Shown here piece by piece: positions 4,680-63,997 of a stretch of DNA of 64,000 bases. Made by a program: the position numbers and the translations under genes. Source of the DNA: a virus; IMG/VR virus record IMGVR_UViG_3300045988_076436. One strand, written 5' to 3'. The notes below the pieces were generated by a model. The model did not search any database and was not told the DNA's origin. It saw nothing but the letters and a program-made list of their open reading frames with translations. Position 1 is the first letter of the stretch. Each line of letters opens with the position of its first letter.

Positions 4680-4716
4680 TATCTTAACTTTCTTATGATT
4701 GTGTAATATTCGTATG

Positions 4717-4724: not shown

Positions 4725-4743
4725 GCCATATAAGAGGTGGACT

Positions 4744-4759: not shown

Positions 4760-4772
4760 GAGTTGCGTTGAG

Positions 4773-4803: not shown

Positions 4804-5253
4804 ATGAAATACTTTGGCAGCATATTGGATTTTACAAGGGAGCGCAATGCCGACCTTATGAGGGTGTACCGCGACAGACTTGCCGAGGCAAGCATCATCA
4901 TCATGCCTGTTATCTTTCAGTTGGTGGCCGACTCTCCAGCTTCGCGTTTCTGGGTGAGCGAGGAGCGCGCGGCCATTGTCATTTCCGCTATGGCGGCAGG
5001 AAAGCCCATGCCGCGAATGAGGAGCAACAAGCGTGAGATGTTCGAGGAGATTTACCGCAGATACCTCCTCATGCGTGAGGATTATCCCGACAAGTCGGTC
5101 TATGAGTTGGTTACGAAGATAGTCAATCAACCTGCGCCCAAGTTCTACCTCACGCCTCGCACGGTCGGGGAGTTTATTTACCGCATAAAGAATGGATGGT
5201 ATGACAACCAATACGATAGATACAGAGATTGCCGCACTGCTTGCGGAGAATGA
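4804..5253 (+). CDS. Putative small terminase / DNA-packaging accessory protein (149 aa)
   Basis: The ORF-track entry is 4795..5253. I prefer ATG 4804 (MKYFGSILDF...) because it lies downstream of the -7 box. The gene directly precedes and overlaps the large terminase. Function is inferred from position only. Confidence 0.5.
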   Translation: MKYFGSILDFTRERNADLMRVYRDRLAEASIIIMPVIFQLVADSPASRFWVSEERAAIVISAMAAGKPMPRMRSNKREMFEEIYRRYLLMREDYPDKSVYELVTKIVNQPAPKFYLTPRTVGEFIYRIKNGWYDNQYDRYRDCRTACGE

Positions 5254-21400: not shown

Positions 21401-24400
21401 ACCACGGACGCACCTTGTCGCCAAGTGCCTTTACCATCATGGAGGCATAGTCACCGAATGACTCGTTGCCACGCTCCACCATTGCCATAGCCAGACGCTG
21501 ACCAACGGACATGAGTTTCTGACGCTGCTCTGCGGTCAGTTCTTCGGGATCACGGAACTTCAGCCCTGCATCGCCCTCGTCTGCACCAATGCCGAGAATA
21601 TCACGGATGTCATTCATCAATCCGTTCATTTCCTCGTCACTCACCTCATACTTAGGCTTTTCTGCCTCCTTGGTCGGCTGTTTGGGTTCTTCCTTGGTTG
21701 GCTCTGTCGGCTTTTGTTCTGTCACATCGGCCACCTCAACCTTGTTGGCAGGTTTCTTAGCTATGGTTTTCTTCCGTGTTGCAGGCTTCTTCGGCTCTAC
21801 GGCATCGCGCAACTCTTGTGCGGTCAGTGGCTGTGCGTCTGCCACGGCATCGGCATTGCCCACCATGTCTGCTGCTTTCTTCGCGTCCTCCTCACTGCGG
21901 AACATCCAGCCTCCGCTCTTGCGGTCTTTCCAACCGCGTGCAGGAGAAAAGCGTCCCTCGCCAAGTCTCTCCTTGGCAAATTCACTTACGGCACGCTCTT
22001 GGTCGGCTGTCAGTGCGCCATCAAACGTAAGCAGGGATACATCGCTCGCCTTACCTTTCTTATTAGTATAGGTGGTAGGAGTGATGGTATAAGCTGCATT
22101 GTCTGCATTTCCCGTTGTCGGTGCTGCCGTATCTTCCTTTGCAGGAGAACTTGCCACGGTCTCTTTCTTCACCCCGGCATACTCCGCAAACGGCTTGGTC
22201 TTGCGGTGGCTGCTGTCTATCCACTTCTCGAAATCTTCGAGGTTCGTTGTGGACACGATAATCCTGCGCCCATCTTCCCAACCTTTCTCATAGTTGGCCA
22301 GATAGTCGCTCTTCGCCTCGTCCATGTCGTTAAAGCCAAGCATCACCTTGTGCTCGTCAAACGTGCCATCGGGATTGTACTGGTCCACCACATACACCTT
22401 GCGCCCGTTCCAACCGTCAATATCATTGGAGAGGAACACATCTATGTGGTCTCCGTCCACGCCCACTGCACCACGAATGTAGCCGTAAGTGTTGTTCATC
22501 TTGCTTTCCCATTGTTTGCCGTTGGCATCCGTGCCTTTGCGCACACTGCCCTCTGGCTGCTCAATGGTAATGTCGAACGTGCCGACCTGCACATGACCTT
22601 TCTTGTAGTTGCCGGCCTCTTTCTGTGCCTCGGTGGGTTCGGTGTTCACATCGGCTGATGCGGTCTTTATCTTGGCTGACAACGGCTGCTCCGCTCCGTC
22701 AAGGTGTTTGACAACCTCTTGGAGGTCGCCAAACTGCTTGCCGTCCACCTCATAGTAAGTACCGGGATAGTTCTTGCTCTCGTCTGGAGCGTCCACTTTG
22801 ATTACTTCCTTGCCGTCAATGAGGAGTTTCTGCTTGTAGATGTCGCCATTTGCGCTTGGCTCTGTCCACTCCTCATCGGTTTCGGTAATGCGCTTGCGCA
22901 ATGCCTCTTCCTCTGCCTCGGCAAGTGTGTCAGTATTTGGTTCTTCTGCCTGTGGAGTATTATCCTGCTTGGCAGGTTCGGTCTCGGCTACTGCTGGCTG
23001 TTGAGGCTCTGCACTGCGTTGTACAGCATCCGCAGTTTGTTCAGTTGCCTCGTTTCCTCCACGCTGTTCTGCCTCGGCTTCTGCGGTGCGCTTGCGTTCT
23101 GCAATGGCTGCATCGACGAGGGCTTGTTGTTCTCTTGGTGTTGCATTTCTGAATAATTCATTTACGTCATTAAGTATTTGTTCCTTGGAACGTACATCGC
23201 CAGTAAACATATCCAACTGACCACCAGCTGGAGCTACTGCGGCACTATTATAGGTAGAGAGTACTTTGCGCAGGTCACTTGGCTTACCGCTGTTCAGTAT
23301 GTCGGCAAGCATCAATACCGTGCCGTCCGTCACTCGGCTGTCTCCGTATTCATCATCAAACAGACCTTGCTCCCTGCCGAATGGCGACACAGGCATTCCG
23401 TCCTTGAAGATGTCGGGGTGTGCGCTCTTGGCTCTTGCCACGAGGTCAACGGCTGCACCCAACTCATTGCTTAGGTCGTAGCCACTTTTGGCGAGTGTGC
23501 GGTTATGGGCTATCTCGTTCAAGCCCATAATGACCGACTGGCGCAATGTGGGTGTACTGATGATATGGCGCACGGCATCGGGCGAAGTCTGAAAGACCTT
23601 GCCTATAAGCGTGTTCTCGATAAGTTCCTTTCCTGCTGCCGACAACGAATTGCCTGTGCGCATTTCGGGCAGCTGCATCTCGTTGATGACTCCTGCACCG
23701 AGCAACTGACTGATAGCCGAAGATACTGCCTTGTCGTCTGCGTAGTAGTCTGAAAGGCGGTCAAAGCGGCTTATGTCATTGGTGATGCTCGTGAAAACAT
23801 TGTCGGGGACAATCTTGCCGAGTTTCACCGCGTGCTCTGGCTTGCTCTGTTTCTTCTGCTGTTCAGCGTTGAAACGTGCGAATGTGGTTGCATCGTAGGG
23901 CAGTTGCTCGTCCGGGACAAACACCACACGCGGATGTTTCATACCGTCTATCTGCTCGGGAGTGAAACCGTACATCTGTCCGAACTCGCGCAGATGGTCG
24001 ATATACGCCTTGTCTGTTCCCTGCTGAGCTGCAATGTCGCCCGACATGGTGCGGTTGTTGCCCGAAAGCACTACACCGTCCTTGCTCACGATGACAGGCG
24101 ACTGCAAGGCGCGGCTGTCGTAATTGTTGGCAATGTCCCTCACTATCCGCTGTGCGTCCGTGTCGCGCTTGTAGTCGCGGTCGTTCACGCTCTCTCCGTT
24201 CTCGTCAATGGGGAAACCCTCGGTCGGTTCAAAGGCGTTGTTGATGTCGTGGCTTGCTGACGCGGCTCCTGCCTCGGTGAGGACGTAATGCCCACGAATG
24301 GTAGAACCGTCCGCAAGGGTGAGTGCGTTGGGATTGCCCTCCACCTTGGCGGCACCGTTCCACTTGGCCTTTATCTTCGGGTTCACGGCATGAGTGCCTA

Positions 24401-27400
24401 CCTCGGCTTGCTCGGCAGCTTTCTGTGCCGCAATGCGTTTCTGCTCCCCGACCTGCGCCACGGCTGCATCGTGCATCTGCTTGTCGCGCTCACGTTGCTC
24501 TGCCTCACGCTGTTCACGAATTGCACGCTTACGCTCGTTCATAAGGGCGTAAATCCTCGACCATGCGCCCAGTGTCTCCTCTGCCTCCGCCACTTGTGCG
24601 TTGTACTGCTCCATGGCGGCATTGTAGTTGGCATCGGCCTCCTGCTGTGCCTTGACCATCGCCATAGGCGAACCTTTGAGGGACGGTGCTTTCTTGGTCG
24701 GCTGTTTCTTCTTCAGCGCATCGAGTGTCTTTTGCGCTTGCTCCACCTGCGCATTGACAATGGCGGTGGTGTTGGCCTCGTTGCCGCCTGTAACCTCGTT
24801 GAGCGCGTCAAGGGCAGTCTCCTTGTCGGCCTTCTCAAACATGGGTTCGCCAGTCTCCTCATTAAGAGGAACACGCTCCAGTGCAGTCGGCTGGCGGTTG
24901 GCCTCTTTCCACTGCACGCCTTGCGCTTCAAGTTGGTGCTGGGCAAGCTCATTTCCTCCACGCGCCATCTGTACAAGTTCTTCAGTTGTCGGAGAGGCAG
25001 GAGCAACAACATCATTGTCTTGCGGTGCGGAATTATCTGAAGCCTCCTCGGTCGCATCCGCATCTTCGGCATATTCTCTCGTCCATACCGGATTACCATC
25101 CGCATCATTAATGCTCTCGACCATATTCTCAAACTCCTCGACAGGGATAATCTGCACACGCTTTCCGTTTAACGGCTCGTCTGTGCGTATCTCTACACCG
25201 TCATCGCTGATATTCTGCACCTCGCCATGAACGTTTGCACCATCACCGTCAAGGAGTGTAAAGGTGTCATTCACGCCATATTGTACACCCTCGAGCGTTT
25301 TTTGTACACTTTCGCCATCATTCTGTACATTTTCATCCGATTTTGGTACGCTTTCACCATTTTCCATACCACCAAGCACGGCCTCATGCTCAGCTTGAAT
25401 GTTGGCATAAGCCTCGTCAAGTTCGGCTTGTGGGTCAATGGCATCACCGAGATTGAAGATTTGGTCGGGACTGGTAAACTTGTATTCGCCTGTCTCGGCA
25501 TCGCATATCACAATGCTTTGGTCGGAGTTCTGTGTGTCTATGCCTGTACCATCGGGAAGTACTGCGACATTACCTTTTACAATGTACACAGGCTTGTCGT
25601 CCACCTTCATGGTAGCTGGTTGCACCATGCCGTTGTCCTTGTGGGTGTGTCGCTCCACATTGGCGGCTACCTCCCTGCGCTTATTCTCCATCGCATCGTT
25701 GGACGCATCCTGCACACCGTCCATCGCTGCCTTGGCATTGATGTAGTAGAGTACCGCATTCTGCTGGTCTTCCGTCAGTTCGGGGTCGTTGGCCAATGCC
25801 CACGGATTATCCTGTATCTCGGCCATGCGCATTTCTGCGTCCGTGCCGAAAGCGTCCTCACATTCCTGCAAGGCTTCTTTCATGCGAATGGATATGGCAT
25901 CAATATCGGCTTTCGCGTCCGCGTCTCCTTGCTCCATTTTGTCCCACAACAGGCGAGACTGGTCGTAAACGGCTGAGGCTCCTGCCTCCTCGTCCGACAT
26001 GGGTTGCTCGGCTTCCTTGCTTTGCTCCGGGAACAACCGCTCTATGTAGTCCTGCACAGCAGCCTTTTCAGGGTCAGTACGCTTGCTCGGCTCTTTTTTG
26101 ATGGCCGCGTCCACATCTACGCCTGTCTCTTCCTTGATGGCTGCACGGATAGCCTCTGGACGTTCTGCGTCTGCCATGCCTCTGTTCTCTTCCATGAACT
26201 TGTCAATGGCATCGACCATCTGCCCATAGTTGGCGATTGCGTCCTTGTCGCCCTCCTTTGCAGCTTGGTAGTTGCGCTTGACGGTTTCGGGGTCAGCACC
26301 GGGGGCAACGGCTTCAACAGCTGCGTCCCACACCTTGTTGTCGGCTTTAGCCTCGGTGTAACGCTCACCTACATCAACGCTGTTGAGTTCGGCCTGTCGC
26401 ATGATTTTGTCCTGCTCCCTCTTGGCTGATGCCTCGTCTGCAAAGCGTCTGTTCGTTACGACCTCGCCATTGGCTGTAACGGACTTCACGAAGATATTGC
26501 CGTGTTCGTCCTTTTCGGTGGTGTACCCGGTAACAGTACCCATCGGCAACTGATGCCCGGTGAGGATATAATATGCCTTGGCTCTTGCGCTCTGGCTCAC
26601 ATTCGGGTCTTGCATGAGGCGTTCCATAGTCTCGTAACCGTCAAACTCGGGGTGTGTCTTGAGCCACTGCTTGCCCAAATCCTCAACCTCGGCTTCGGGA
26701 ATGTCAAAGTTCATTACCTTTCCGTCCGTGGTTGTCGGCTGTTTTGCCTTGGCTTTGGGCTGCTGTTTTGGTGTACGCGTGAAGAGTGCCGCAAGGTCGC
26801 CATAGCCGTACTTCTGCAACTCCTCGCGCTCTTCCTTGGTGAATACCATGTCGCGCGGACTTGCGTCCAACTGCTTACGCAACAATTCACCAAAACTCAT
26901 GCGGTTGTGATTGCGCTCCTGCATGGTCTTGGGGTTCTCGATAGGGCGCAACCCTGCAATAACCCTCGGAGCGGACTTCACCATGTGCTGACCCTTGAAA
27001 CCGAGCATCATCGCCATGTTGTCCGTCCACACGTCCCATGCACTGCGCTTATTGGGATTGCCATCTTCCAACTTGGAATTTTCAATCCATTCGGGAGTAG
27101 AGAAGATTGTCCCCTCGGCAACGGTTGATGTCGCAAGTTCTCCAAAACGGATACCTCCCTTACCATACACGTTTGATGTACTTTTTACCCATTTGTCGGC
27201 AACATTGCCCAACAATGGGGAGATAGTGCCAGTTACAGAGCCAAGGATAGTGCCTCGTCCTGTCGATTTCAAGATGTCCTCTGCCGAATATCCCTCATTC
27301 TCGCCTGTCTGCGGATTGATGTGTCCGCCATGCAGCCACTGGCTCTCGCCCTCCTTGATGCCCTCGTATGTGCCGAAGTTCAAGCCTCCACCAACCGAGC

Positions 27401-31943: not shown

Positions 31944-33433
31944 AACCCTTTACCCTTAGTTCTTTCGTACACCGCTTCTCTGTCGGTGTCCACGTTCTTG
32001 ATGCGGAACTGCACGGCACACCTGTCCGGGATAGTGTCGGGCAGTTTCGCTGCAAGTCGGACAATCACCTCATCAATGTTGCTGAAACCAATGTCGCTCA
32101 CCTCGGCCAACACCTCACCACGGAAGTACGCCCTTGCATAAATCATGTACTTTGGCGCAATACGGAACATCGTGTCCTTGCGTTCTTCCACATCGTGCGC
32201 CAAGCCCTGCTTGCTCTTTGCCGTGCTGAAGAAGATGAAGTCAATCACTTTTGCGTTCAGTTCCCATGCAGGGGAGAAGTCCAGCTTGATGTAGCCGCGC
32301 GTGATGGTGCGTCCGTGCGAGTGGTTCATGGCAAAAGCCACCTCGTCAATGGTCGCTCCGCAGTCGTTCTGCGCCACCGTTCCCCAAGTATGGCGGAATG
32401 TGTACGCCCTGTATTGCTTTTCCTTGGGTATGCCCAGACTCCTGCAAATCTGCTTGATGCCGTTGTTCACACCTGCACAGAACGAGTCGCTGTCGCAAAA
32501 ACGCTTGTGGAAACGGAACAGGTAAGGGTCGTTAGGCTCTGCCAAGTATTTCTCCACCAACGGCTGTATCACTGGCTCAACCCTCATTTCGATGTACGCA
32601 TCATCGGTGCGCGTCTTTTTCGTCTTGGCTCTGTTGTAGCACAAGCAGCCGTTTCGGTAGTTCTCTTTCCGCATCTCGAAAAGGTCAACCGTGTTGATAC
32701 CTGCAAGGCAAAGTATCATCTTCGACACGTCACGCCCAATCTCGGGCAATGGATCAATCATTTTCGTCTCGGGCAATGGGGCAGCGAAGAACACGCGGCA
32801 CTCCTCTGGGCTGATGGCAATCTTTGCCGTGCGGTCAGCCTGTGGTATCTTCACCTTGCCCCAAGGGTTCGTCTTGATGCGGATAACTCCGTTGTCGTAG
32901 TCGTTGTATTCCGCCACGGCAGCACGGAACACCTGCCTCATGCATACCGGGTACATCTCCTTTGCCCTGTGCGTCTGTTCCAACGACTGCACCCACAGGT
33001 TCACGAAAGTGGAGGTGAGTTGCCCGAACATCACCCTCGTTGTCACTGCAAACCGCTCCATGTGCTGGAGTGCCAGCTTGTAGTTCTTCGCATTCCTCAA
33101 CTGTCCGTTGTCAATCATGCGGTTTATGTGCAGGTGCGCATAGTCCGAAAAGCACAAGTCCTCGTCCTCCTTGGTCACATACTCGATTATCTGCTTGACC
33201 GTCCACTTTGAACTATCCACACGGTTGAGCAGTTCTGTGAAACGGAGTATGCGCCTCATGCAATACTCGTTCACGAAAGGGTCGGTGATGTCATTGTTCT
33301 TGTCGAGATAGTCTTTCGTAACAACCTTGTCGGTCTTGATGTATCCGGGCTTGCGGTTCTGCATCACCCGAATGTACACTTGGAAGAAACCGTCTTTGCG
33401 CGGTCTCCTGGTTACTGGTTTGAACATTGCCAT
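31940..33433 (-). CDS. int: Tyrosine recombinase / phage integrase with an unusual C-terminal extension
   Basis: The catalytic region reads AYTFRHTWGTVAQN...AFAMNHSHGRTITRGYIKLD (R...HxxR...Y pattern). About 115 residues follow the Tyr. I chose ATG 33433 (MAMFKPVTRRPRKDGFF), not the TTG at 33460 listed in the ORF track. Confidence 0.85.
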   Translation of the reverse strand: MAMFKPVTRRPRKDGFFQVYIRVMQNRKPGYIKTDKVVTKDYLDKNNDITDPFVNEYCMRRILRFTELLNRVDSSKWTVKQIIEYVTKEDEDLCFSDYAHLHINRMIDNGQLRNAKNYKLALQHMERFAVTTRVMFGQLTSTFVNLWVQSLEQTHRAKEMYPVCMRQVFRAAVAEYNDYDNGVIRIKTNPWGKVKIPQADRTAKIAISPEECRVFFAAPLPETKMIDPLPEIGRDVSKMILCLAGINTVDLFEMRKENYRNGCLCYNRAKTKKTRTDDAYIEMRVEPVIQPLVEKYLAEPNDPYLFRFHKRFCDSDSFCAGVNNGIKQICRSLGIPKEKQYRAYTFRHTWGTVAQNDCGATIDEVAFAMNHSHGRTITRGYIKLDFSPAWELNAKVIDFIFFSTAKSKQGLAHDVEERKDTMFRIAPKYMIYARAYFRGEVLAEVSDIGFSNIDEVIVRLAAKLPDTIPDRCAVQFRIKNVDTDREAVYERTKGKGF

Positions 33434-33467
33434 TGTCTCTGTATTTTTTTTGTTATTCAAAAATCAT

Positions 33468-33718
33468 GTGTAAGCATTGGTAAGCGCATCATGCCGATTT
33501 GGTGTAAGTTTTGGTAAGCAAACCCTGCACATTCTGCACGATAATCATGCAGAATGTGCAGACCCCCTAAAAACAACTTAGGCGGCAAGCCTCTTTATTG
33601 TCAGAGACTTACCGCCTAACTCGTTAGTTACGAGGGCTTATCGTGTTATTCCTCAACCGCAGCCTGCGCAGCAGTTCGTACCCTCTTATTTTGAGGGCTT
33701 ATCGGAATATTGGTAAGC
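33468..33718. promoter_or_regulatory. attP-like structured non-coding region upstream of int
   Basis: G(G)TAAG(C/T) direct repeats at 33468, 33478, 33502, 33512 and 33711. A perfect 14-bp inverted repeat CTGCACATTCTGCA-N9-TGCAGAATGTGCAG (33525-33561). An imperfect 42-nt hairpin (33578-33619). A CTCGT/ACGAG hairpin (33620-33634). GAGGGCTTATCG direct repeats (33632 and 33693). Confidence 0.45.
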
Positions 33719-54752: not shown

Positions 54753-55226
54753 TTACTGGAGGTCAAACACGCTCCAGTCTATGTTGTCTTTTTCTTTCCA
54801 ACCGTCCATGATGGCGTTGAGAATGTAGGCTGATGCCTCCTTGCTGAACTTGATGAAGTCCTCTCTTGTCTCAAAGGTGTAGTACACTGGCGTTGCGTCC
54901 GCCTCCTCGTTGAGTTTCAGCGTGAGCGGATAGGCTATGCTCTCGTTGTTTTCCAAAGATGCGTAGTTGCGCTGCTTCTCGTCCGACAGCCATACCTTGA
55001 TGCCGTCATACTCAAAGCGGTTCACAATCTTGTCCTTGGTCTCTGCGTCTATCGTGTCTCTGACAAGCTGCTTTATCTCGTCCATCGTGGGCTTGCGGCT
55101 GAACGTGTGGCGGTATTCATAGTTGCCGTCCTCGGTCTCGTAATAGCCGAAGTAGAGCAGCCATTTGTTCTTGCCTATGCGTTGCAGTCCATCTTGCCGT
55201 TGGGTTGTGCCGTATATCTTCTCCAT
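54753..55226 (-). CDS. Hypothetical protein (157 aa) downstream of the RT
   Basis: Clean ORF with no motif recognised. Confidence 0.6.
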   Translation of the reverse strand: MEKIYGTTQRQDGLQRIGKNKWLLYFGYYETEDGNYEYRHTFSRKPTMDEIKQLVRDTIDAETKDKIVNRFEYDGIKVWLSDEKQRNYASLENNESIAYPLTLKLNEEADATPVYYTFETREDFIKFSKEASAYILNAIMDGWKEKDNIDWSVFDLQ

Positions 55227-55301
55227 GTCGTTATGAATTTGTTACGCTGCAAAGATACACCGACACACCGCACATCGCCTTTTATCTTTAGTGAGCTGCC
55301 A

Positions 55302-56792
55302 TTAAGTGAAGTTATACTTGCGCTTGCTGCCGTCAAACACCTCACACTTGATGATGGTCTCGAATGGAAAGCCGTCCTCTATGTCGCTTATCTGGTCAAG
55401 TATGCCTTTCATCTCCAACGAGGCGGTGAAGAACTTGCCCCATTCCGAGTTGGCTGGATTGCGGAATGACACCAAATAGCGGTCTTCGCCCTCTTTTGTG
55501 TCTATGCCTGTCTCAAAGTCGTGAATTTCTATCGGTATGTTCACGATGTCACCGAGGCGTGTCACCTTGCCGGGAAAGCGTTTCTTGCCGTCAGCAGGTG
55601 TATAGGTTACGCCCATTTCTGAAAACTTCTTCATGTGTTTACCTGTTAATGTATAATATAGATGTTTACAATCTGCGTGGCAAGCCATTCCCTTGAATGA
55701 CCCTATTATCTGTTGCCGCCTCTTGCGCGACTTTATCTTGGCGAGTTTCCGTGCAGCGTTCACCTTGGTACGCTTTCTCAGCAGGGAGTAGTCCCCATAA
55801 TCAACAAAGCCGAGTGCGTCCATTCCTGCACTGATGGGTGCAACTTTCTCACTCGGCTTTATTATCAGATTGTAGGGTTTGCATAGTCTATGCAGGGTGT
55901 CCCTGTGTTTCCACAACTCTTTCTTGTTGTCTCCAAGTATGTATATGTCGTCACAAAAGCGGTTGTAGTTGTCTTTTCCACATTCCTCTATCATGGCATG
56001 GTCTATGTCGTTGTGGTACAGGTTGCCGAAAAACTGCGAGGAGCGTAGTCCCTTGCTGATGCCTACGTTGTCATTCGGGTGCAGAGCCTTTACAAAGTCT
56101 ATGAGTATGGGCAGCAGCACTGGGTCGGCAATGTAGCGTTTTATTATCTCTATCAGTCGGTCATGCAGTATGTGGTCGTAGTAACCTTTGTAGTCGCTTT
56201 GATAGTAGTATATGAGTTTCGGATTGTTCCGCCTTGCCTCCTGCATCTTGTGATACAATCCGTGTGGCCCTCTTCCCTCTATCGAGGCTGCGGTGTTCTC
56301 TATCAGTATGGGCGCAAGGTGTTTTTCCACTATCTCCATGATGGCGTTGCTGCCCACACGCTCTATGACGGACGGTGCTTGCACGGTTCTTATCTTCGGG
56401 CCGTCTGCCGTCTCAAACGATTTAAGGTGCTTGATGCGGAATGTGCCGTTGGCTATCTGTGCCTTTAGCATGGCGATGATGTCCGCCTTGCGTTTCATGT
56501 AGCGCACCATGCGTGGCGTGCATTCCACTCCGTCTATAACAATATTCTCCCTCCACCGTAGGCCGTTGCGAGTATCTGCGTTGTGCAGGTTCGACATGAC
56601 GCGCTTGAACGAGCGTTCCATGTTCTCGTCCGCTATGATTTCGGGGATAAGGTCTAATAACGGAAAACAGATAGAAGTCTTTTCTTCTACCTGCCCCAAT
56701 AGTTCTTCCAATGTATTGACAGCCTTCCTGTCCTGTGGGGAGATACTTGCGCACTCCCCACATGTGGTTAATGTCGTGTTCCGGCTTTCCAT
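55302..56792 (-). CDS. DGR-type reverse transcriptase with an extra C-terminal domain (496 aa from ATG 56792; track ORF from GTG 56855)
   Basis: RT motifs: YYYQSDYKGYYDHI (catalytic Asp), GISKGLRSSQFFGNLY (the GxxxSQ hallmark of DGR RTs, cf. Bordetella IGNLTSQFFANVY) and RFCDDIYILG (xxDD). It lies adjacent to the TR. Confidence 0.9.
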   Translation of the reverse strand: MESRNTTLTTCGECASISPQDRKAVNTLEELLGQVEEKTSICFPLLDLIPEIIADENMERSFKRVMSNLHNADTRNGLRWRENIVIDGVECTPRMVRYMKRKADIIAMLKAQIANGTFRIKHLKSFETADGPKIRTVQAPSVIERVGSNAIMEIVEKHLAPILIENTAASIEGRGPHGLYHKMQEARRNNPKLIYYYQSDYKGYYDHILHDRLIEIIKRYIADPVLLPILIDFVKALHPNDNVGISKGLRSSQFFGNLYHNDIDHAMIEECGKDNYNRFCDDIYILGDNKKELWKHRDTLHRLCKPYNLIIKPSEKVAPISAGMDALGFVDYGDYSLLRKRTKVNAARKLAKIKSRKRRQQIIGSFKGMACHADCKHLYYTLTGKHMKKFSEMGVTYTPADGKKRFPGKVTRLGDIVNIPIEIHDFETGIDTKEGEDRYLVSFRNPANSEWGKFFTASLEMKGILDQISDIEDGFPFETIIKCEVFDGSKRKYNFT

Positions 56793-56886
56793 ATTTATAT
56801 GCTGTTGCCGAGGCTCTAATCCCTCGGAGTATGTTTGTGGCAATCCTCGTGCCACGTCAGAGACCTCCGATTAAACTTAACCAAGA

Positions 56887-57002
56887 GAATTTCAGCCGCC
56901 CACCGTAGTTCGTGTTCGAGTTCGAAGAAGCGTTGTTCGCGTTCGCATAGGCGAGACCGCTGTTCGCATTCGAGTTGTTGCCAGACCGCAGAACACAGCG
57001 GC
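56887..57002 (-). repeat. DGR template repeat (TR)
   Basis: 116 bp homologous to 57842-57957. In coding orientation it is AAC-rich: ...GGC AAC AAC TCG AAT GCG AAC AGC...AAC GCG AAC AAC...AAC TCG AAC ACG AAC TAC GGT GGG CGG CTG AAA TTC. Confidence 0.9.
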
Positions 57003-57033
57003 GCGTGGGATTTTCTGCCTTTTGTTCCTTTGC

Positions 57034-57336
57034 TTACATAATCGGACGCACTATGTCCACTTTCAGACCAAGCGCATCAATGATGCGGAAGAACATGCCG
57101 ACACCCGGCTCTATCACGCCTTTCTCTATGCGTGAGATATAGGTTTTGTCTGTTCCCACTTTCTTGGCAAGGTCTGATTGCGTCATGTGCTCTTGCTTTC
57201 TTGCGTCAAGGATTATCTGACCTACACAATAGTTGGTTGCCTCCTTTCTGAACGCTTCTCTTTCTGCAGTTCCTACTGCGCCATACTTGGCATCAAGAAT
57301 GGCATCGAAACTGCTAATGTCATTTCTTTGCTGCAT
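57034..57336 (-). CDS. XRE-family HTH antitoxin, HigA-like (100 aa)
   Basis: HMTQSDLAKKVGTDKTYISRIEKGVIEPGVGMFFRIIDALG. ATG 57336 overlaps the toxin 3' end by 17 nt. Confidence 0.75.
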   Translation of the reverse strand: MQQRNDISSFDAILDAKYGAVGTAEREAFRKEATNYCVGQIILDARKQEHMTQSDLAKKVGTDKTYISRIEKGVIEPGVGMFFRIIDALGLKVDIVRPIM

Positions 57337-57655
57337 AATATTCCTTTTTAAGTTCAAGTGCTTTCTCTATCTCCTTTGAGGGCGTCTTTTGGGTTTTCTT
57401 CTGAAAGCCGTTGAACAGCATCACGATGTTGCCCTCATCAAAGATGAAGAATGCACGGTATATATTCCCATTGTAACTGGCTCTAATCTCATAGAGTCCG
57501 TCCTTGATGAACTTCACAAATTTCTCACTCACTCTCTCCTGCATCTTCAGCACATCAAGCACATAGTCTATCTTCTTCTGTGCGCCCATTTCCAAAGAGC
57601 GGTAGAACGTGAGGAAGTAGTCTTTGTAAAGTAATATCTTCCTCTCTGAATTCAT
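57320..57655 (-). CDS. RelE/HigB-superfamily toxin, Gp49 (DUF891)-like (111 aa)
   Basis: ...FIKDGLYEIRASYNGNIYRAFFIFDEGNIVMLFNGFQKKTQKTPSKEIEKALELKKEY matches the Gp49/HigB-type pattern (LYELR...R.FY.F..g..ivll.gF.KKtqKTP..EI..A). The toxin-first order matches higBA. Confidence 0.75.
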   Translation of the reverse strand: MNSERKILLYKDYFLTFYRSLEMGAQKKIDYVLDVLKMQERVSEKFVKFIKDGLYEIRASYNGNIYRAFFIFDEGNIVMLFNGFQKKTQKTPSKEIEKALELKKEYYAAKK

Positions 57656-57659
57656 GCTG

Positions 57660-57667
57660 CAAAGGTA
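57660..57667 (-). promoter_or_regulatory. Bacteroides-type -7 box (TACCTTTG) 4 nt before the toxin ATG
   Basis: The reverse complement of 57660-57667 is TACCTTTG. It is the only such box I found between the VR and the RT. Confidence 0.45.
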
Positions 57668-57720
57668 ATACTTAAAGTTGATATATCCTACAACTTTTGC
57701 AATTATTTTGCATCACTCAT

Positions 57721-57740
57721 AAAAAACTCGCTTACGCGAG
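57721..57740 (-). terminator. Rho-independent-type terminator after the DGR target gene
   Basis: The minus strand reads CTCGC-GTAA-GCGAG followed by TTTTTT. Confidence 0.5.
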
Positions 57741-57749
57741 AAAGCAGGG

Positions 57750-57784
57750 AGAGGGAGCAGCCTCCTATCGTCGGCTCTCCCTCT
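57750..57784 (-). other. Strong GC-rich hairpin 58 nt downstream of the VR
   Basis: 12 bp with one bulge: 57750-57762 pairs with 57773-57784 (AGAGGGAG(C)AGCC / GGCTCTCCCTCT), with a 10-nt loop. Confidence 0.55.
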
Positions 57785-57814
57785 GACGCTTTTTTCGTGG
57801 CTGCGCTTGCCGCT

Positions 57815-60800
57815 TTATCCGACTATTACGAATTTGCCGCGGAAGGCCAGCCGCCCACCGAAGCCCGTGAGCGAGAACGAAGAAGCGAAGTTCGCGACCG
57901 CAAAGGCGAGACCGCTGTTCGCATTCGAGACGCCGCCAGACCGCAGAACACAGCGGCCTCTGCTGCCGGGAAACCACAAACCTGCCGCATAGTGGGTGGT
58001 GTACTTGCTCGTGTCGGTCTGATGCACCTTGCTTGGCAAGATGTCGCACTTCGCTCCATGCACCACTCTCACAACGCAGTTGCCGTTAGAGTTCACACTC
58101 TGCACCACACGCTCGGTTTTCTTCACCGGGTCATAGATGTGGAATTTGTAGTCTATGGGGTCATCGTTGGTCTCCACACAGCGGTTCTTGTAGAACGTCT
58201 CGTAGCTCTGCACGTTTCCTGCTATGTAGTCCATCCATTCCGAGTCGCAGCCCACATAGTGTTTGAGTCCCATGATGGAGTTCATTGCGTTGCCCACATA
58301 CGAGGTGTCGGCCATACCTATGTTGTCGAGGCTGTTCAGCGTGGCATCGTGTGCGCCATTGCCAACAACAGACTGCTCGTTGGTCGTGCCGTGGGTCGCC
58401 CACCACAGGTTGCTGATTTCCTTGTGCTGCTCGTAGTCTTGGAGCTGGTAGCCCTCTCCGCGCATGTGCGCACTGTTTTGGAAGTCCTTTGCCGTGTAGT
58501 GTATCGTCCCGGTCGGTGTCTCTGTCGGGTTGCCGTCAGTGTCGTATGCCCATTCTGCCGAGGTCTGCGAAGTGCCGTCTCCCTTGCGTGAGCGCACCGC
58601 GCCCGATATGCTCCTTGGTCGTTTCAGTCCGTCTATGGTGATGGGGTATGTTCCCAAGAGGCTGTCGTTCTCGCCAACGGTGTGCTCCGTCCATTCGGGT
58701 TCTATGGCCTCTATATGCTCGCTATCAACGGCAAGACACAGGCTGTCCTCTATGTCGCGGTACGAGGTGAAGTACATCCACTTCGCTCCGCCAGGCACAT
58801 CGCAGAACACGTAGTTGCCTATCGAGAAGTCGAAGTAGGTGTGGCTCACCATCATGTTGAACTTGCCTACTATCTGTCCGTTCTCGTCCGTGAACACGGC
58901 TCCGAGCCTTGCGTGGTTCAGTCCCGGCCATCTCACCTGCTTCATGCCCTCCACGTCCATGCGGTAGGCGTTCACGTTGGCAGCGGTGGTGATGATGTTC
59001 TCGTCTATCACCGTGCCTACCTCTGCCTCGTCAGCATACACGCCTGTGTTCTCCGCATAGAGCAGTGCCGATAGCATGGCCTCGCGCTTGTTGTTCACGG
59101 TGGATAGCGGCTCGTTCTCCGTGGTCGAATAGACGATGTACTTCTGTTGGTTCTTGTAGTCGTTCACGCCCTTGTACCAGTGGTGGGGCAGATGGTGGAA
59201 GATGTCAAAGCCCTCTCCTGCGCTATCGCCCACATCGAAACTCTCGCCTGTGGCAAGATAGTTGAAGTCGCTGTCGCTCAGTTGCACGCCCTCCATCTGT
59301 TTGAGTTTGGAGTTGTAGGTACACTTGTAGGCGTGGGTCTCCTGCAATATCTTCAGTGTGTGTCCGCTCGCCACAAAGGTCTTGTCGTAGTCCGAACCTG
59401 TCTTGTTTTCGGGGTTGCTGTATCGCTCACAGAAGTCTCCGCTCACGATGTCGTCTATCTTCACCACCGAGAACTGCGAGTTGATGACGGTCAGTTTCGG
59501 GAAGTATTTCTGCAATGCCTCCACCTCGCTGTCCTCCACAAGTTCTGTCAGTATCCATCGGCCGATGATGCCGCTGCACTGCCCGGTCTCATCGTAGGTG
59601 CTGCCGTTCGCGTCTATGCCCACGGCTTCGCTCTGCATGATGCCGCGCAGCATCTCCACGCTGGCGGTGGCGTTCACGCCCGGTATGCGCACGCTCTTCA
59701 GCTGTCCTGCCGTGGTTATCTGCCGCAGCAGGGTCATGGTGTCGATGTGCGGACACTCGTCAAGGAACATTTTCTTCACGTTCGTCATTCCTGCTATGGT
59801 CAGTCCGCCAGGATAGGTCAGCTTGGGCAGGTTCTTGAAGTAGAGCGTGGTCATGGTGGCTGGCAGTTCAAGGGTCTCTATCGGGGCTGTCTCGGCAAGG
59901 TCTATGCTCGACAGTTGCGAACCGCTCGCCAACACCTCTTTCAGTCTCGGGCAGTACGAGGCGATGATGCTTGTTACCTTGGTGTTGCGTGCGTCTATGC
60001 GTCTGAGGAAACTCTTGTTGCCCATGTTGAGCTGCGTGATTGCTCCGCTTTCCTCGGCTGGCGTGTAGTCCGCTCCGCCAAGTATCAGTTCTTGCAGCAT
60101 CGTGCAGTTCGAGATGTCCCAACCCTCGGCTTTCGGGGTGCAGCCGCTGATGTCAAGACTGGCAAGGCGTGTCGCTCCGAACACGTAGAGCATCGTTCCT
60201 GCGCCTGTGGCGGTCATGCCGCTCTTCAGCGTGTAGCTTTCTCCTGCTTTCAGATAGCAGCTGTCCACACAAGCGTCCGCACGGTCCACTCCTAATCCGA
60301 AGAAGCCGTCCTGCACTGCCGTTATCTTGATGCTGATGTCCGTACCCACGGCACGCATCTTGAACGGATTAGTGTACAGCTCGCCCACTTGGTAGTAGCC
60401 GTCACGGTAGGCAAAGCGTTTCTCAAACGTCACGGGCAAGTCCTCATATCGCAATCCGTGTACGGCATAGTAGTAGTTTGCACCTGCCTTGGAGTTCTCG
60501 ATGTACTTGCGCTCTCCGTCAAACGAGCTGGTTATCTTCGCCCACTTCGCTATGCGGTCGGTGATCCAGAGTTTCTTGCAGCCGTCTGCGGAGAATATCT
60601 TGATGCCGTCTGCCTCCGCGCTGCGCATATCGCCCGCTATGTCGTGCAGCGTGATGGTGGTCTTGCCCTCATCTTCAAGCCAGAACTTGTCAGCTGCATA
60701 ACCTTGCTTGAACATTACAGAATTCCAACCTTGGTAATAATGCTTAGTGTCTGTCACGCTGTCCAAATCCCATGGCACAGTAATACCGCAGTCATTGTCA

Positions 60801-63800
60801 GCAAGCCAACAACAGTCTCCGTCATACCAATGGTTGAAGTAGGCGCGTATGCTGCCGTTGATGTCAAGATAGAACGAAATCATCATGTTCTTGCTTCGTT
60901 GGTCAACAGCAAGCACATAATCAGTACCTATAATGTAACAACCCGTAGAACGAACGTTGGCATAAAGGTAGAGTTCCTCGCAGAACTTTTTCAATCGGTT
61001 CTCCTTTGTTCCTGCCACGCTCTTGCCGTGCAGGGTGATGTTTCCGTCTGCCTCGGTACGGTCTTGCGAGCATTGCTGTGTCCATAGCAGCCACTTGTAT
61101 AGGTTGTACGGCACTTTCTTTCCCTTGGCGTAGAGGTCGTTCAAGTCGTCATCGTCGGGGTATCGGCTCTCGTAGTAGCCGAGCCACACGGGTTCGCCTG
61201 TCGATTGGTCTATGCGCATGAGGTCGTCCACGCTGTTCACGCCTTGCAGCCAACAGAACGAGTCGTATTTCAAGTACTCAAAGCACTCTACCGGGTTCAG
61301 CACCCTGCCTGTCACGCCCCATTTCTTGGTGCTCGTGTCATACTGCATCTTGCCTGTGGTGTCTTTCCACTTGCCTCCGCTGTATTTCACATACTTGTAG
61401 TCGTTCGTCAGGTACACCGTTCCCCAGTCGTAGTTGTTCACATCGTCTGCCAGCACCTCGGCAAGGCTCTTGTCCACTTCCGTGGGGTCGGCTGTGGCGG
61501 TGGTCTCCTGCATCGTGCCTGTGCCGTCATTCTCCAAGAAGATGTGCTTCTCTCCGCAGTTTTCGCTCAGCATGTAGATGTTCGAGGCTATCAGCTCTTC
61601 GCTCTTCGCCAAGGTCTGCACCTTGAAGATGTTGAGGTCTTGGTTTTTCTCGGCCACGAGTTCCACAAAGTCGCCATAGTTCAAGCAGTCGCTGTTGTAG
61701 CCGCTCACTTTCTCGAAGCCGAAGAACGATGGGTTGCCCTTGTCCACGTTGAAGTTGGCCTTGGCATGGAAGTAGGCGTAGGTCTCGTTGGTCGCGTCCA
61801 CGCTCTGCTGGTCGGTGCGGAATAGGGCGCACGTCACGCTGTCGATGCTGGTGTTCATCGTGTCGCCTCCGTTGTAGGCATTCTGCGCTGGGGTCATGTA
61901 GTCCGCTCCCATGGCTCGCTGGGTCTTGTTCATCAGCTCCATGGTCGCTCCGTTGTTCGCGCCTGTCGAGTCGGAGTAGTCCACCTTGATGGTGATGGTC
62001 TTTACCCACAAGCCTCCGTCTATCACCTGCACTTGGCTCTTCGCGGCCATCTTCTTGGCCTTTTGGAACTTGGCCAGTGCCACTGGGTCGTTCTTGAAGT
62101 CCTCCTCTGTGTGGAGCATCTCTATCTTGCAGCCTTTGAACTTGCCTTTCTTGTTCTTCACGGGCCGCAGCGATGAGGTCGTGCCTTGGTTTGTGGTCGG
62201 CACGTTGTACACCTTGCAGTCCTGCCATGGCCTGTCGGGGAAACGGATTACCCAGTCAAAGTATGCCTTGGTCTTTTTGTCTCCGTCCAGCTTGTCGAGG
62301 TAGCCGGGGTAGCTCTGCTCGATGTCGGGGGTGTCGGCATTCTTCAGCAGGGTCACGCAGCATAGTCCTGCGTTCATGCACGCTTGCATGGTCGGCCTGT
62401 CCTTGGTTGTTCCCTCTGCGGTCTGCGAGGCCATCACTTGGTTCTTCTCGTACTCCGTCAGCATGGCTGCGGTGTCTTTCTGTCCCACCAAGTAGTTGTT
62501 GAATGCCTGTCGGTAGTTGTAGTAGGTGGCCCAGCCGATGGCACGGTACAGGTAGATGTCGGCTTTCGTGCCGTCAAACTTTATCTGCATGTCGTTGTGG
62601 GCAAACTTCCCGGCATTGTAATAGGTGGCTGCGGCCTCGTCTCCGTTCACATATATCTTGATGGAGCCTATGCCGCTGTATGGGGCTATGCTGGTCGGCT
62701 CTATCACAATGTCGAAACGTGTCTCCTTGTCAGTGGCATACAGGGCTACGGCTGTCTGCTGTGCGCCCAAGTCATCGGGGTTGGCTGCGGTTGCTCCATC
62801 ACAGGTGAACACGAGTTTCTCGCCTGTCAAGTAGAAGCCGAGCTGGTTGTCGCCCAGGCAGTCGATGATGCGTGCCGTGCGGTCTTCCACATTTTTCACC
62901 TTTACCGTGAAACTCAGTGCCATGCCGTTCTGTTCGATGCTGGTGTTGGCGAATGGCTTGAACGAGCACACGGCTTTCATGTCCTCGGCTATGCGGAGTG
63001 CCATGCGTCCCTTGTCGTTCTCCGTGCCGTAGGTGGGCGTGCCGTAGGTGTCCTTGACAAATCCGTTGCTCGACCAGTTGCAGTTCTCAACGGTGATTTC
63101 CACTCCTCCGTCCTTGATGGTCTTGTCGGTCTCTCCGTTGCTGCGTGAGTCCATCGTGATGTTGAACTCGCGCATGGTAGTCACTTCCTCCACATCTACA
63201 AGCGAGCCATCAACAATGAATGTGGCGGTTTCTGATGCGCTGTCTCCGCACGTCACTTTCACCGACACGCTCTTTGTGCCGTCATGCACGCTCTCCTGCA
63301 CTTGCTTGGTGAACGTGTTGGTCTGTCCCCGGTAGGCCACAGTGGTGGTCTCCTGCGCTCCGTCATACCACACCACGGCTTGCGGCTCGTCCGTGTCGGC
63401 TGCATACACGGCATAGTCCACCTCGATGTTCTCATAGAGTTTTCTCTTGCCTTGCAGCTGCTCGGTGTACCAGCGCATGCCCACTATCGGGGTGTTGTTG
63501 CCGCTCTCCACCACCATGACGGCAGTGTGGAGGTAGTTGCCCACCACGCCCGAACCTACATCTTCTCCGTGTATGCGCAGGGGGTATGCGCCATGTGTCA
63601 GTGTCTCGCCCAAGCAGCTCTTCGGGTCTATGGTGATGGAGTGCGAGTAGGTGTCGAGAACTACGCTTGTGCCGAGTGTCTGCCACTCTCCGTTTATGTA
63701 TATCTCGGTTACTACCTTGATGCCTTTGTCCGATGCGTTGTTGGCAAACTTGTACATCGGTATGCTCTTGGCGGCTCCTCCTGCGGCAAGGGCGGTGCTT

Positions 63801-63997
63801 GCCGTGTAGTTGAGGGTCTGCACACTGCTGATGGTAACATCTACACCGCTCACGTTGATGTTCCTGCTGCCTGTGTTTCCTGCATCATCATAGGCGATAA
63901 GTTGGAAACGCTTGGTGGTGGCGGTTACGAAGTAGCTGCTCACGTCCATTTCGAAGTCGTAGGTGTCTCCGCTTGCCGATGACGCTCTGTTGAACAT
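57815..63997 (-). CDS. DGR target: very large receptor-binding/tail-fibre-type protein (at least 2,060 aa; may continue beyond the window) with a C-terminal variable lectin-like domain
   Basis: The VR encodes the last ~45 residues (...CVLRSGGVSNANSGLAFAVANFASSFSLTGFGGRLAFRGKFVIVG), resembling CLec-fold DGR variable proteins. There is an internal leucine-rich-repeat-like block (~59650-60180). The ATG at 63997 may be internal, since the 3 nt upstream are still open. Confidence 0.8.
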   Translation of the reverse strand: MFNRASSASGDTYDFEMDVSSYFVTATTKRFQLIAYDDAGNTGSRNINVSGVDVTISSVQTLNYTASTALAAGGAAKSIPMYKFANNASDKGIKVVTEIYINGEWQTLGTSVVLDTYSHSITIDPKSCLGETLTHGAYPLRIHGEDVGSGVVGNYLHTAVMVVESGNNTPIVGMRWYTEQLQGKRKLYENIEVDYAVYAADTDEPQAVVWYDGAQETTTVAYRGQTNTFTKQVQESVHDGTKSVSVKVTCGDSASETATFIVDGSLVDVEEVTTMREFNITMDSRSNGETDKTIKDGGVEITVENCNWSSNGFVKDTYGTPTYGTENDKGRMALRIAEDMKAVCSFKPFANTSIEQNGMALSFTVKVKNVEDRTARIIDCLGDNQLGFYLTGEKLVFTCDGATAANPDDLGAQQTAVALYATDKETRFDIVIEPTSIAPYSGIGSIKIYVNGDEAAATYYNAGKFAHNDMQIKFDGTKADIYLYRAIGWATYYNYRQAFNNYLVGQKDTAAMLTEYEKNQVMASQTAEGTTKDRPTMQACMNAGLCCVTLLKNADTPDIEQSYPGYLDKLDGDKKTKAYFDWVIRFPDRPWQDCKVYNVPTTNQGTTSSLRPVKNKKGKFKGCKIEMLHTEEDFKNDPVALAKFQKAKKMAAKSQVQVIDGGLWVKTITIKVDYSDSTGANNGATMELMNKTQRAMGADYMTPAQNAYNGGDTMNTSIDSVTCALFRTDQQSVDATNETYAYFHAKANFNVDKGNPSFFGFEKVSGYNSDCLNYGDFVELVAEKNQDLNIFKVQTLAKSEELIASNIYMLSENCGEKHIFLENDGTGTMQETTATADPTEVDKSLAEVLADDVNNYDWGTVYLTNDYKYVKYSGGKWKDTTGKMQYDTSTKKWGVTGRVLNPVECFEYLKYDSFCWLQGVNSVDDLMRIDQSTGEPVWLGYYESRYPDDDDLNDLYAKGKKVPYNLYKWLLWTQQCSQDRTEADGNITLHGKSVAGTKENRLKKFCEELYLYANVRSTGCYIIGTDYVLAVDQRSKNMMISFYLDINGSIRAYFNHWYDGDCCWLADNDCGITVPWDLDSVTDTKHYYQGWNSVMFKQGYAADKFWLEDEGKTTITLHDIAGDMRSAEADGIKIFSADGCKKLWITDRIAKWAKITSSFDGERKYIENSKAGANYYYAVHGLRYEDLPVTFEKRFAYRDGYYQVGELYTNPFKMRAVGTDISIKITAVQDGFFGLGVDRADACVDSCYLKAGESYTLKSGMTATGAGTMLYVFGATRLASLDISGCTPKAEGWDISNCTMLQELILGGADYTPAEESGAITQLNMGNKSFLRRIDARNTKVTSIIASYCPRLKEVLASGSQLSSIDLAETAPIETLELPATMTTLYFKNLPKLTYPGGLTIAGMTNVKKMFLDECPHIDTMTLLRQITTAGQLKSVRIPGVNATASVEMLRGIMQSEAVGIDANGSTYDETGQCSGIIGRWILTELVEDSEVEALQKYFPKLTVINSQFSVVKIDDIVSGDFCERYSNPENKTGSDYDKTFVASGHTLKILQETHAYKCTYNSKLKQMEGVQLSDSDFNYLATGESFDVGDSAGEGFDIFHHLPHHWYKGVNDYKNQQKYIVYSTTENEPLSTVNNKREAMLSALLYAENTGVYADEAEVGTVIDENIITTAANVNAYRMDVEGMKQVRWPGLNHARLGAVFTDENGQIVGKFNMMVSHTYFDFSIGNYVFCDVPGGAKWMYFTSYRDIEDSLCLAVDSEHIEAIEPEWTEHTVGENDSLLGTYPITIDGLKRPRSISGAVRSRKGDGTSQTSAEWAYDTDGNPTETPTGTIHYTAKDFQNSAHMRGEGYQLQDYEQHKEISNLWWATHGTTNEQSVVGNGAHDATLNSLDNIGMADTSYVGNAMNSIMGLKHYVGCDSEWMDYIAGNVQSYETFYKNRCVETNDDPIDYKFHIYDPVKKTERVVQSVNSNGNCVVRVVHGAKCDILPSKVHQTDTSKYTTHYAAGLWFPGSRGRCVLRSGGVSNANSGLAFAVANFASSFSLTGFGGRLAFRGKFVIVG
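57842..57957 (-). repeat. DGR variable repeat (VR)
   Basis: Offset exactly 955 bp from the TR. There are 19 mismatches, every one at a plus-strand T of the TR (A in coding sense). They affect 10 codons (7 AAC, TAT, TAC, AAA). Confidence 0.9.

Follow-up and report, generated by a model that had tools for sequence, protein, structure and literature searches.

The window analysed here is a 64,000-nt stretch of DNA (IMG/VR record IMGVR_UViG_3300045988_076436) from a temperate Bacteroidales phage with a genome of ~64 kb, whose host is probably Prevotella. It contains a diversity-generating retroelement (DGR), in which a toxin-antitoxin (TA) gene pair is positioned between the variable repeat (VR) of the target gene and the template repeat (TR). 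All genes of the DGR region, and the features of the region described below, are on the minus strand. Read in the sense of transcription, the region consists of the target gene with its VR, a hairpin with a terminator, the toxin gene, the antitoxin gene, a 31-nt junction, the TR, an RT-3 RNA, the reverse transcriptase (RT) gene, and an open reading frame (ORF) encoding a protein of 157 aa. The toxin gene (57320-57655) encodes a 111-aa protein of the Gp49/HigB type from the RelE/ParE superfamily, with an isoelectric point (pI) of 9.5. The antitoxin gene (57034-57336) encodes a HigA-like protein of 100 aa with a helix-turn-helix (HTH) domain of the XRE family. The two genes overlap by 17 nt and the toxin is encoded first, which is the reverse of the usual TA order. 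The ORFs, the order of the pair, the 31-nt spacing, the terminator, and the A+T-richness of the region agree with the original prediction, made from the sequence of the window, in every detail that could be checked. Comparison with related loci indicates that the pair is an accessory cassette, which probably took the place of the promoter of the TR and RT.

The TR (56886-57002) is rich in AAC codons, and the VR (57841-57957) encodes the C-terminus of the target protein and has a 3' end, GGTGGGCGGCTG GCC TTC, that resembles an initiation of mutagenic homing (IMH) sequence. The cores of the two repeats (56893-57002 and 57848-57957) are 85% identical, and all the mismatches are at adenines of the TR. 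The homology can be extended to positions 56886 and 57841 if a constant AAA/GCC difference is included. The gap between the VR and the TR is 845 nt long. The RT gene adjoins this pair of repeats and the VR is positioned at the 3' end of the target ORF, which is the arrangement that defines a DGR. The target gene is followed by an imperfect hairpin (57737-57797) and an intrinsic terminator formed by CTCGCGTAAGCGAG and a T-run at 57740-57721, so that the two structures together span 57721-57797. The folding of this region has a minimum free energy of -40.1 kcal/mol (z = -2.8), and none of 200 shuffled sequences folds as well. The hairpin is conserved in alignment A2, with a compensatory G-C to A-T change. 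It is likely that the hairpin and terminator end the target transcript, and that the hairpin is the target-recognition hairpin of the DGR.

Identity of the toxin-antitoxin pair

The toxin matches the full Gp49 domain of Pfam (PF05973; E=7e-23, 80.9 bits, curated cut-off 23.9), and the only match obtained in a sequence search of the PDB is HigB (6af3, E=5.6e-5). The antitoxin matches HTH_3 (E=6e-14) and the HipB/XRE antitoxins of the PDB. In NCBIfam, the toxin belongs to the RelE/ParE-family toxins (TIGR02683) and the antitoxin to the HTH proteins of the TA antitoxin type. The AlphaFold2 (AF2) model of the toxin, which is of moderate confidence, has the helix-helix-four-strand-helix topology found in RelE and HigB. 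The top fold matches of the model are structures of HigB1 from M. tuberculosis (7nbu and 7awk, probability 1.00, template-modelling (TM) score 0.46), and RelE is listed among the matches too. Relatives of the DGR were collected by scanning viral and genome collections with the RT, which yielded 78 further loci, to which the Bacteroides phages BS-TP4 and BKO1-TP3 were added to give a total of 80. The overlapping layout with the toxin first is the same in 41 loci, and in 41 of 42 loci neither gene is disrupted. The ratios of non-synonymous to synonymous substitution rates (dN/dS), 0.02–0.18 for the toxin and 0.02–0.21 for the antitoxin, show that the pair is under purifying selection. As far as can be judged from sequence, the pair is a genuine, and probably functional, TA module of the HigB/HigA type and not an Avd protein, and on this point the evidence from Pfam, the PDB, and the predicted fold bears out the original prediction. 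The C-terminal two-thirds of the toxin also match the C-terminus of the protein named 'NsnC' in PADLOC (E=1e-12), indicating that a candidate anti-phage system employs this toxin domain as well.

As in the window, the DGR of Bordetella phage BPP-1 (mtd-avd-TR-brt) has a small basic ORF between its two repeats; it is encoded on the same strand, immediately precedes the TR, and is probably co-transcribed with the TR and RT. Both elements also undergo adenine-specific mutagenesis and have a hairpin downstream of the VR as well as a GC-rich IMH-like end. However, the ORF of BPP-1 encodes Avd (accessory variability determinant), a pentameric four-helix bundle, whereas the window has a dispensable toxin and antitoxin instead. 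Avd proteins have 128 aa and a mean pI of 9.5, and 74% of DGRs carry avd (Wu et al. 2018, PMC5758913); the toxin is thus similar to Avd in size and charge, in addition to its position. Despite this similarity, a replacement of Avd by the toxin or the antitoxin as the cofactor of the RT is extremely improbable and can be regarded as effectively refuted. Both proteins are high-confidence members of the Gp49/RelE and XRE-HTH families. Neither is a four-helix bundle, since the toxin model is an alpha/beta fold that matches HigB1 and RelE, and the antitoxin has an HTH fold. The same TA genes are present in chromosomes without any RT, and relatives that lack the pair diversify their VRs equally well. 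A requirement for mutagenic retrohoming, which would be expected of an Avd, does not apply to the pair, since 30 relatives without it keep the TR, the VR, and the adenine-specific variation. None of the 217 ORFs of 75–260 aa in the window matches the Avd family (PF05635) in Pfam, in keeping with the original statement that no Avd-like ORF could be seen in the DGR cassette. Because the toxin resembles Avd in size and charge, these properties are unsafe criteria on their own, and neither position nor size nor pI by itself justifies the annotation of a small basic ORF between a VR and a TR as Avd.

Presence and absence of the pair in related retroelements

A TA pair is located between the VR and the TR in 41 loci, including that of the window. 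Thirty loci contain both repeats and no TA pair, and their repeats are separated by 161–354 nt, mostly 161–241 nt. Two of the remaining loci (BKO1-TP3 and L058) contain a single merged copy of the TR and VR, and the others are truncated. The TA pair is absent from all the deep lineages, at ~50% RT identity. In the crown group the distribution is patchy, with TA-less subclades nested in TA-bearing ones and vice versa. The cassettes occur as several alleles, including the type found in the window, a type with 92–94% identity to it, and a type with 81% identity that accompanies an RT with only 63% identity. Another allele, in which the toxin is 65–68% identical, the N-terminus of the antitoxin is divergent, and the HTH domain is identical, is present in phages with 96% RT identity. 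The TA type of BS-TP4 is only 35% and 32% identical to that of the window. The identity of toxins at the same site ranges from 100% down to 35%, while that of the flanking RT is 74–96%. In the comparison of alleles, the antitoxin has a conserved C-terminal HTH domain, and its N-terminal ~40 aa vary together with the toxin. In five loci (L012–L014, L056, and L075), strong divergence affects the toxin and the N-terminal ~40 residues of the antitoxin, and residues 41–100 of the antitoxin are identical to those of the window type. This pattern points to either a recombination breakpoint inside the antitoxin gene or a neutralising segment that co-evolves with the toxin.

The homology between TA-bearing and TA-less loci ends just past the hairpin and terminator of the target gene and restarts ~18 nt before the TR. 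Between these two points, the TA-bearing loci contain a cassette of ~720 bp in place of 115 bp or 34 bp of unrelated sequence. The 115-bp and 34-bp segments were considered as possible remnants of a TA pair and rejected. They have no homology to the cassette, indicating that the two states are alternative cassettes and not the products of simple deletions. The G+C content is 0.42–0.45 across positions 57050–57800 and 0.51–0.59 in both flanks. The A+T-richness of the pair and its polymorphism for presence and absence support the earlier suggestion that it is an insertion. Related genomes had been proposed as a check on whether the pair is a sporadic insertion accompanied by a normal avd gene at another place; the occurrence of the pair is indeed sporadic, but there is no normal avd elsewhere.

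The DGR is active both with and without the TA pair. When the VRs of near-identical phages are compared, 93 of 95 mismatches are at TR adenines in the TA-bearing loci, and 122 of 122 in the TA-less loci. The variation at TR adenines in both states indicates that the pair is dispensable for mutagenesis. Two loci with RTs that are 99–100% identical (L007 and L009) contain A-to-N substitutions in the 'TR' itself, at positions 5854–5970, and the TR of L009 is nearly the same as its VR. This could be the result of either VR-to-TR gene conversion, which would erase the adenines of the template, or a chimeric assembly. From the comparison of the loci, the TA pair appears to be an accessory, moron-like, swappable cassette, and not a component of the DGR.

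Promoters ahead of the template repeat

The promoter of the TR and RT was sought as the Bacteroidetes-type -7 box, TAnnTTTG, on the RT strand of each locus from the end of the VR to 200 nt into the TR; a scan for sigma-70-type promoters is uninformative for Bacteroidetes. In the window, the box TACCTTTG is located at 57660–57667, 4 nt before the ATG of the toxin gene. It is the only TAnnTTTG sequence on the minus strand between position 55257 and the window end, and the observation that the stretch between the terminator and the RT contains a single box, just upstream of the toxin, was correct. The box precedes the toxin ATG by the same 4 nt in 38 TA-bearing loci, at -662 to -669 from the TR. 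Each scanned locus contains exactly one box, except for BS-TP4, which has two (-758 and -716). In all 30 TA-less loci, the box is 28–47 nt upstream of the TR, and it is found there in ~11 diverged lineages with different 'nn' bases. Hankyphage has a TAnnTTTG sequence at -36 from the TR. In contrast, a TR-proximal box is missing from all 39 scanned TA-bearing loci, in which a box is present only ahead of the toxin. The positions of the boxes indicate that the cassette replaces the native promoter of the TR and RT; the 34-bp or 115-bp segment for which it is exchanged includes the TAnnTTTG sequence of the TA-less loci. The slot between the target terminator and the TR appears always to hold the TR-RT promoter, either bare or together with a TA operon.

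The junction between the antitoxin stop codon and the TR (57003–57033) is 31 nt long, and ~20 nt long in BS-TP4. It contains no promoter box and no terminator, and its last ~18 nt (GGCAGAAAATCCCAC...) are common to the TA-less relatives. Upstream of the toxin gene, an inverted repeat AAAGTTG-N10-CAACTTT (57674–57697) is positioned between the -33 and -7 regions of the putative promoter. The repeat looks as expected for an operator of HigA and is a candidate for this function. It is kept in all cassettes of the window, L015, L012, and L049 types, whose antitoxin HTH domains are almost identical, and BS-TP4, with its different antitoxin, has a different palindrome. The -7 box of Bacteroides promoters sits a few nucleotides upstream of the start site, and a box 4 nt before the ATG would therefore give a toxin mRNA that is leaderless or nearly so.

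The best explanation of the locus, to which we assign a probability of about 0.6, is an avd-less DGR of the Hankyphage type that carries an accessory higBA cassette with read-through into the TR and RT. In this family, the short stretch that separates the target terminator from the TR normally contains the TR-RT promoter only. In the window, it is filled by a mobile type II TA cassette of ~720 bp, composed of a HigB2/Gp49-like toxin, a HigA-like XRE antitoxin, a predicted promoter of its own, and a putative palindromic operator through which the antitoxin may repress transcription. The cassette would have displaced the native promoter, and has no predicted terminator before the TR. The TR RNA, the RT-3 RNA, and the RT would most likely be made as the 3' part of an autoregulated higBA transcript, comparable to the situation in BPP-1, where avd, TR, and brt form one operon. 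That the TA pair supplies the TR-RT promoter, as had been proposed, is very probable from the comparison of the 30 TA-less loci and Hankyphage with the 39 TA-bearing loci, and these sequences are explained most economically if transcription from the TA promoter reads through into the TR, RT-3 RNA, and RT. A preprint from 2026 reports RNA-seq of a Bacteroides lysogen, B. thetaiotaomicron Bt_806, in which HigB, an RT, and a hypothetical gene of the prophage 'Sombra' are expressed together (bioRxiv 10.64898/2026.06.25.734096).

Several points weigh against this explanation. The assignment of the promoter is based on a consensus motif that is not enriched over chance in the whole window, with 28 occurrences and 24 expected, so that only its position is informative. 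A non-consensus promoter may be present inside the antitoxin gene, and the antitoxin ORF contains a weak terminator-like hairpin (57109–57097). The toxin model has a predicted local distance difference test (pLDDT) score of 66.6, and its fold matches have an E-value of 0.02. The prophage 'Sombra' is likened to the phage of the window by its described gene set only. The 157-aa ORF is equated with the published accessory protein CH1, described below, on the grounds of its host, position, size, and pI, rather than by sequence comparison.

Promoters of Bacteroidetes can deviate from TAnnTTTG. It is conceivable, but improbable, that the TA pair is an independent bicistronic moron whose transcript ends before the TR, for which the weak hairpin in the antitoxin gene would speak, and that the TR and RT are transcribed from an unrecognised promoter in the 3' region of the antitoxin gene or by read-through from the late operon of the target gene. 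Transcription of the TR and RT together with their neighbours is not a requirement in DGRs (Wu et al., PMC5758913). However, a relaxed search of the 330 nt upstream of the TR, in which one mismatch was allowed, gave no site in the window, L012, and L051 alleles, and no conserved site in the others, and an internal promoter ahead of the TR was rejected as a candidate. The strong hairpin and terminator separate the target gene from the cassette. Across 11 diverged lineages of TA-less relatives, the consensus box is conserved and its distance from the TR is fixed. This indicates that a canonical promoter is the norm in the family, and in the window it is missing from this position. The short distance between the antitoxin stop codon and the TR, and the joint expression of HigB and RT in 'Sombra', also disagree with an independent transcription unit.

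With its atypical composition, promoter, polymorphism for presence and absence, and location between a terminator and the next transcription unit, the cassette is similar to phage morons, which are expressed from prophages. However, a moron has both its own promoter and its own terminator, whereas the cassette has a predicted promoter and no terminator before the TR, and it replaces the promoter of the downstream unit rather than being insulated from it. It is therefore moron-like in behaviour but not insulated from the TR and RT. The pair shares more properties with modules of the HigB2/HigA2 type (PF05973/XRE), including those borne by phages and integrons. These are the overlap of the genes with the toxin first, a toxin of the RelE superfamily, an antitoxin N-terminus that co-varies with the toxin, a palindrome overlapping the predicted promoter as a putative operator, patchy mobile spread, and chromosomal copies. 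The differences are that the pair in the window is embedded at the 5' end of the TR-RT unit of a DGR, has no terminator of its own, and appears to be transcribed into a leaderless mRNA.

The avd-less lineage and relics of the element

The RT ORF (55302–56855) contains an RVT_1 domain and matches phrog_1423 (E=2e-89). Its start is ambiguous, with candidates at GTG 56855, ATG 56792, and TTG 56711 or 56699; the likely one is ATG 56792, which is the start given in the annotation of BS-TP4. The last ~110 residues of the RT (408–517, positions 55302–55631) have their own PHROG match, phrog_19665, a family of proteins of ~105 aa; other phages may have RT genes that are split or frameshifted. The RT is 73–74% identical to those of BS-TP4 and BKO1-TP3, and 40% identical to that of Hankyphage p00. 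The TR is followed directly by an RT-3 RNA (Rfam RF03068; 56727–56872, 61.7 bits, E=2.9e-13), whose overlap with the RT ORF covers ~43 codons at the start of the ORF. All relatives checked have this RNA in the same position, among them the TA-less ones, BS-TP4, Hankyphage (146.6 bits), and BT-TP2, and it presumably represents the 'spacer' portion of the DGR RNA in the avd-less lineage. A literature search on the RT-3 RNA in relation to DGRs returned no reports. The target gene (57815–63997 in the ORF list) is cut by the window end. The 2060 aa present here belong to a giant tail-fibre-like protein, full-length homologues of which have 2740–2853 aa, and the DGR target named in BS-TP4 is gp14. 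Another long gene of this phage, a single uninterrupted ORF of 6448 aa at 9408–28754 on the minus strand, takes up ~30% of the ~64-kb genome.

The small acidic protein encoded directly downstream of the RT gene (54753–55226) has 157 aa and a pI of 4.8, and is related to DUF4376, since its distant homologues carry PF14301. The ORF follows the RT directly in all 78 loci that reach this point, as well as in Hankyphage and BT-TP2, and its position after the RT is conserved across three different phage backbones. The AF2 model of the protein is of an alpha/beta type (pLDDT 93) and gave no fold match in the PDB. The possibility that this ORF is a hidden Avd was rejected because of the acidic pI, the alpha/beta model, and the absence of a fold match. 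The protein fits the published accessory protein CH1 and is a candidate for a DGR cofactor that acts independently of Avd. CH1 has 160–169 aa and a pI of 4.7, and is found only in avd-less DGRs, in Architecture E1 of Lineage 3a from Bacteroides and its relatives (PMC5758913). A box TATCTTTG at 55250–55257 may provide the gene of the 157-aa protein with its own promoter.

The DGR of the window is a member of the avd-less Hankyphage-type lineage, which appears to correspond to Lineage 3a with the CH1 architecture. Lineage 3 DGRs lack avd, and ORFs nested between the components of DGRs have been described before (Wu et al., PMC5758913). Hankyphage (Bacteroides phage p00), which together with the avd-less Lineage 3a DGRs of Architecture E (CH1) is the closest known system, has the same giant target with a C-terminal VR, a TR of ~117 nt, an RT-3 RNA, no avd, and an acidic ORF of 161 aa directly after the RT. 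The order of target, TR, RT, and acidic ORF is the same in Hankyphage, BT-TP2, and all the relatives; in BT-TP2, the RT is 34% identical and the layout is target, RT, and DUF4376. However, the VR and TR of Hankyphage and the other deep relatives are only ~170–250 nt apart with no TA pair, the distance in Hankyphage being ~250 nt, compared with the ~720-bp cassette of the window. The TAnnTTTG box ~36 nt upstream of the Hankyphage TR has no counterpart at this position in the window, and the backbones differ, with the ~64-kb phage on one side and the 43-kb Mu-like Hankyphage on the other. The constant parts of the DGR family are the target gene with its VR, the hairpin and terminator, the promoter, the TR, the RT-3 RNA, the RT, and the CH1-like gene. 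The original description of the pair as lying where avd normally lies cannot be maintained for this lineage. It is valid only by analogy with BPP-1, since the lineage is avd-less with or without the TA pair and the gap of the TA-less members consists of a terminator and a promoter.

Relatives of the toxin number 3409 proteins. One cluster of toxins, 92% identical and represented on 554 contigs, is found in the same DGR context. A TA cluster with 90% identity (755 contigs) is located in bacterial chromosomal neighbourhoods without an RT, with SusR/amylase or other genes on one side, and epimerase, UDP-glucose dehydrogenase, and HisIE genes on the other. These chromosomal higBA loci (L082–L091, metagenomic bacterial contigs, at ~3870–4760 in each locus) are homologous to positions 57667–56888 of the window, and contain the promoter, the antitoxin, and a decayed but complete TR. 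The orphan TR follows the antitoxin directly, and no RT or target gene is nearby. The promoter region is partly duplicated in these loci, with an insert of 63 nt. The chromosomal copies were considered as the source of the phage cassette, but the decayed TR downstream of the antitoxin rules this out and indicates that they descend from a phage DGR module. A further relic, at 5161–6084 of a contig from a Bacteroidaceae metagenome-assembled genome (L080), contains the TA pair, the TR, and a part of the RT-3 RNA (window 57696–56772) in a foreign context, where it adjoins DNA that is 74% similar to positions 33177–33672 of the window. The relics are not retro-copies of a TA-TR transcript, because they include the operator and promoter, which are upstream of any transcript start. 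Fragments with the TA pair and TR outlive the rest of the element, and this persistence fits that expected of an addiction module; a role in the DGR is not proven by it. The pair may benefit the lysogen through stabilisation of the prophage or through defence.

BKO1-TP3 (L002, PQ571269) and L058 contain one hybrid copy of the TR and VR each, at 9733–9842 and 5847–5963. The interval between the VR and the TR, with any TA pair and the 3' end of the target gene, was deleted by recombination between the repeats, which left a dead DGR in an isolated phage. BKO1-TP3, which was considered as an example of the ancestral TA-less state, is therefore not an intact TA-less DGR.

TA cassettes are known to stabilise repeat-rich arrays such as the superintegron of Vibrio. 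The pair might be integrated with the DGR, so that retrohoming would be switched on upon derepression of the TA operon by loss of the antitoxin under stress, or the pair would serve as an addiction and anti-deletion module, for example by the killing of lysogens that have lost the VR-TR interval by recombination of the repeats. Both the coupling of retrohoming to TA derepression and the addiction role, which formed a part of the original prediction, remain speculation, and such an integration is doubtful. It would agree with the occurrence of two cassettes with only 35% identity and different operators, those of the window and BS-TP4 types, in the same slot, with the control of the only recognisable promoter upstream of the TR by the cassette, with the deletions in BKO1-TP3 and L058, and with the survival of TA-TR relics after the loss of the remaining DGR. 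However, 30 relatives and all the deep lineages have an active DGR without the TA pair, and the merged loci are only two. Furthermore, the slot is the only intergenic gap in the DGR cassette, and its recurrent use may just reflect tolerance to insertion. No better supported is the proposal that higBA has captured the control of the DGR. The TR, RT-3, and RT RNAs would then be produced only as a 3' extension of a leaderless mRNA repressed by the antitoxin, and the hypermutation of the tail fibre in lysogens would be set by the autoregulatory state of the TA pair, which would be derepressed when stress leads to degradation of the antitoxin. Because the cassette is flanked by two direct repeats of ~117 bp, it would also select against the recombinational collapse of the DGR, which, if true, would explain both the presence of two unrelated TA cassettes in one slot and the TA-TR relics in host chromosomes.

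No description of a TA pair within a DGR was found in the searchable literature, and the paper on BS-TP4 is silent on the toxin. To this extent the arrangement is undescribed, as had been supposed, although the preprint on 'Sombra' reports the co-expression of HigB and RT in a Bacteroides prophage, with no link to a DGR, and is the nearest published item. As described, 'Sombra' has the gene set expected of higB-higA-TR-RT-CH1; its authors mention no DGR, TR, or VR, and suggest an anti-phage role.

The feature thus unites a Hankyphage/CH1-type DGR with a moron-like higBA cassette. Avd-less DGRs of Bacteroidales phages are very common in the human gut, and the loci described here represent a natural experiment on the regulation of DGR mutagenesis: among closely related phages, the same TR-RT unit is preceded in some by a promoter alone and in others by a TA operon that is probably autoregulated. 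Should synthesis of the TR RNA be driven by the TA promoter, a circuit that responds to stress would govern DGR activity in lysogens, and the co-expression of HigB and RT in a Bacteroides prophage would be explained.

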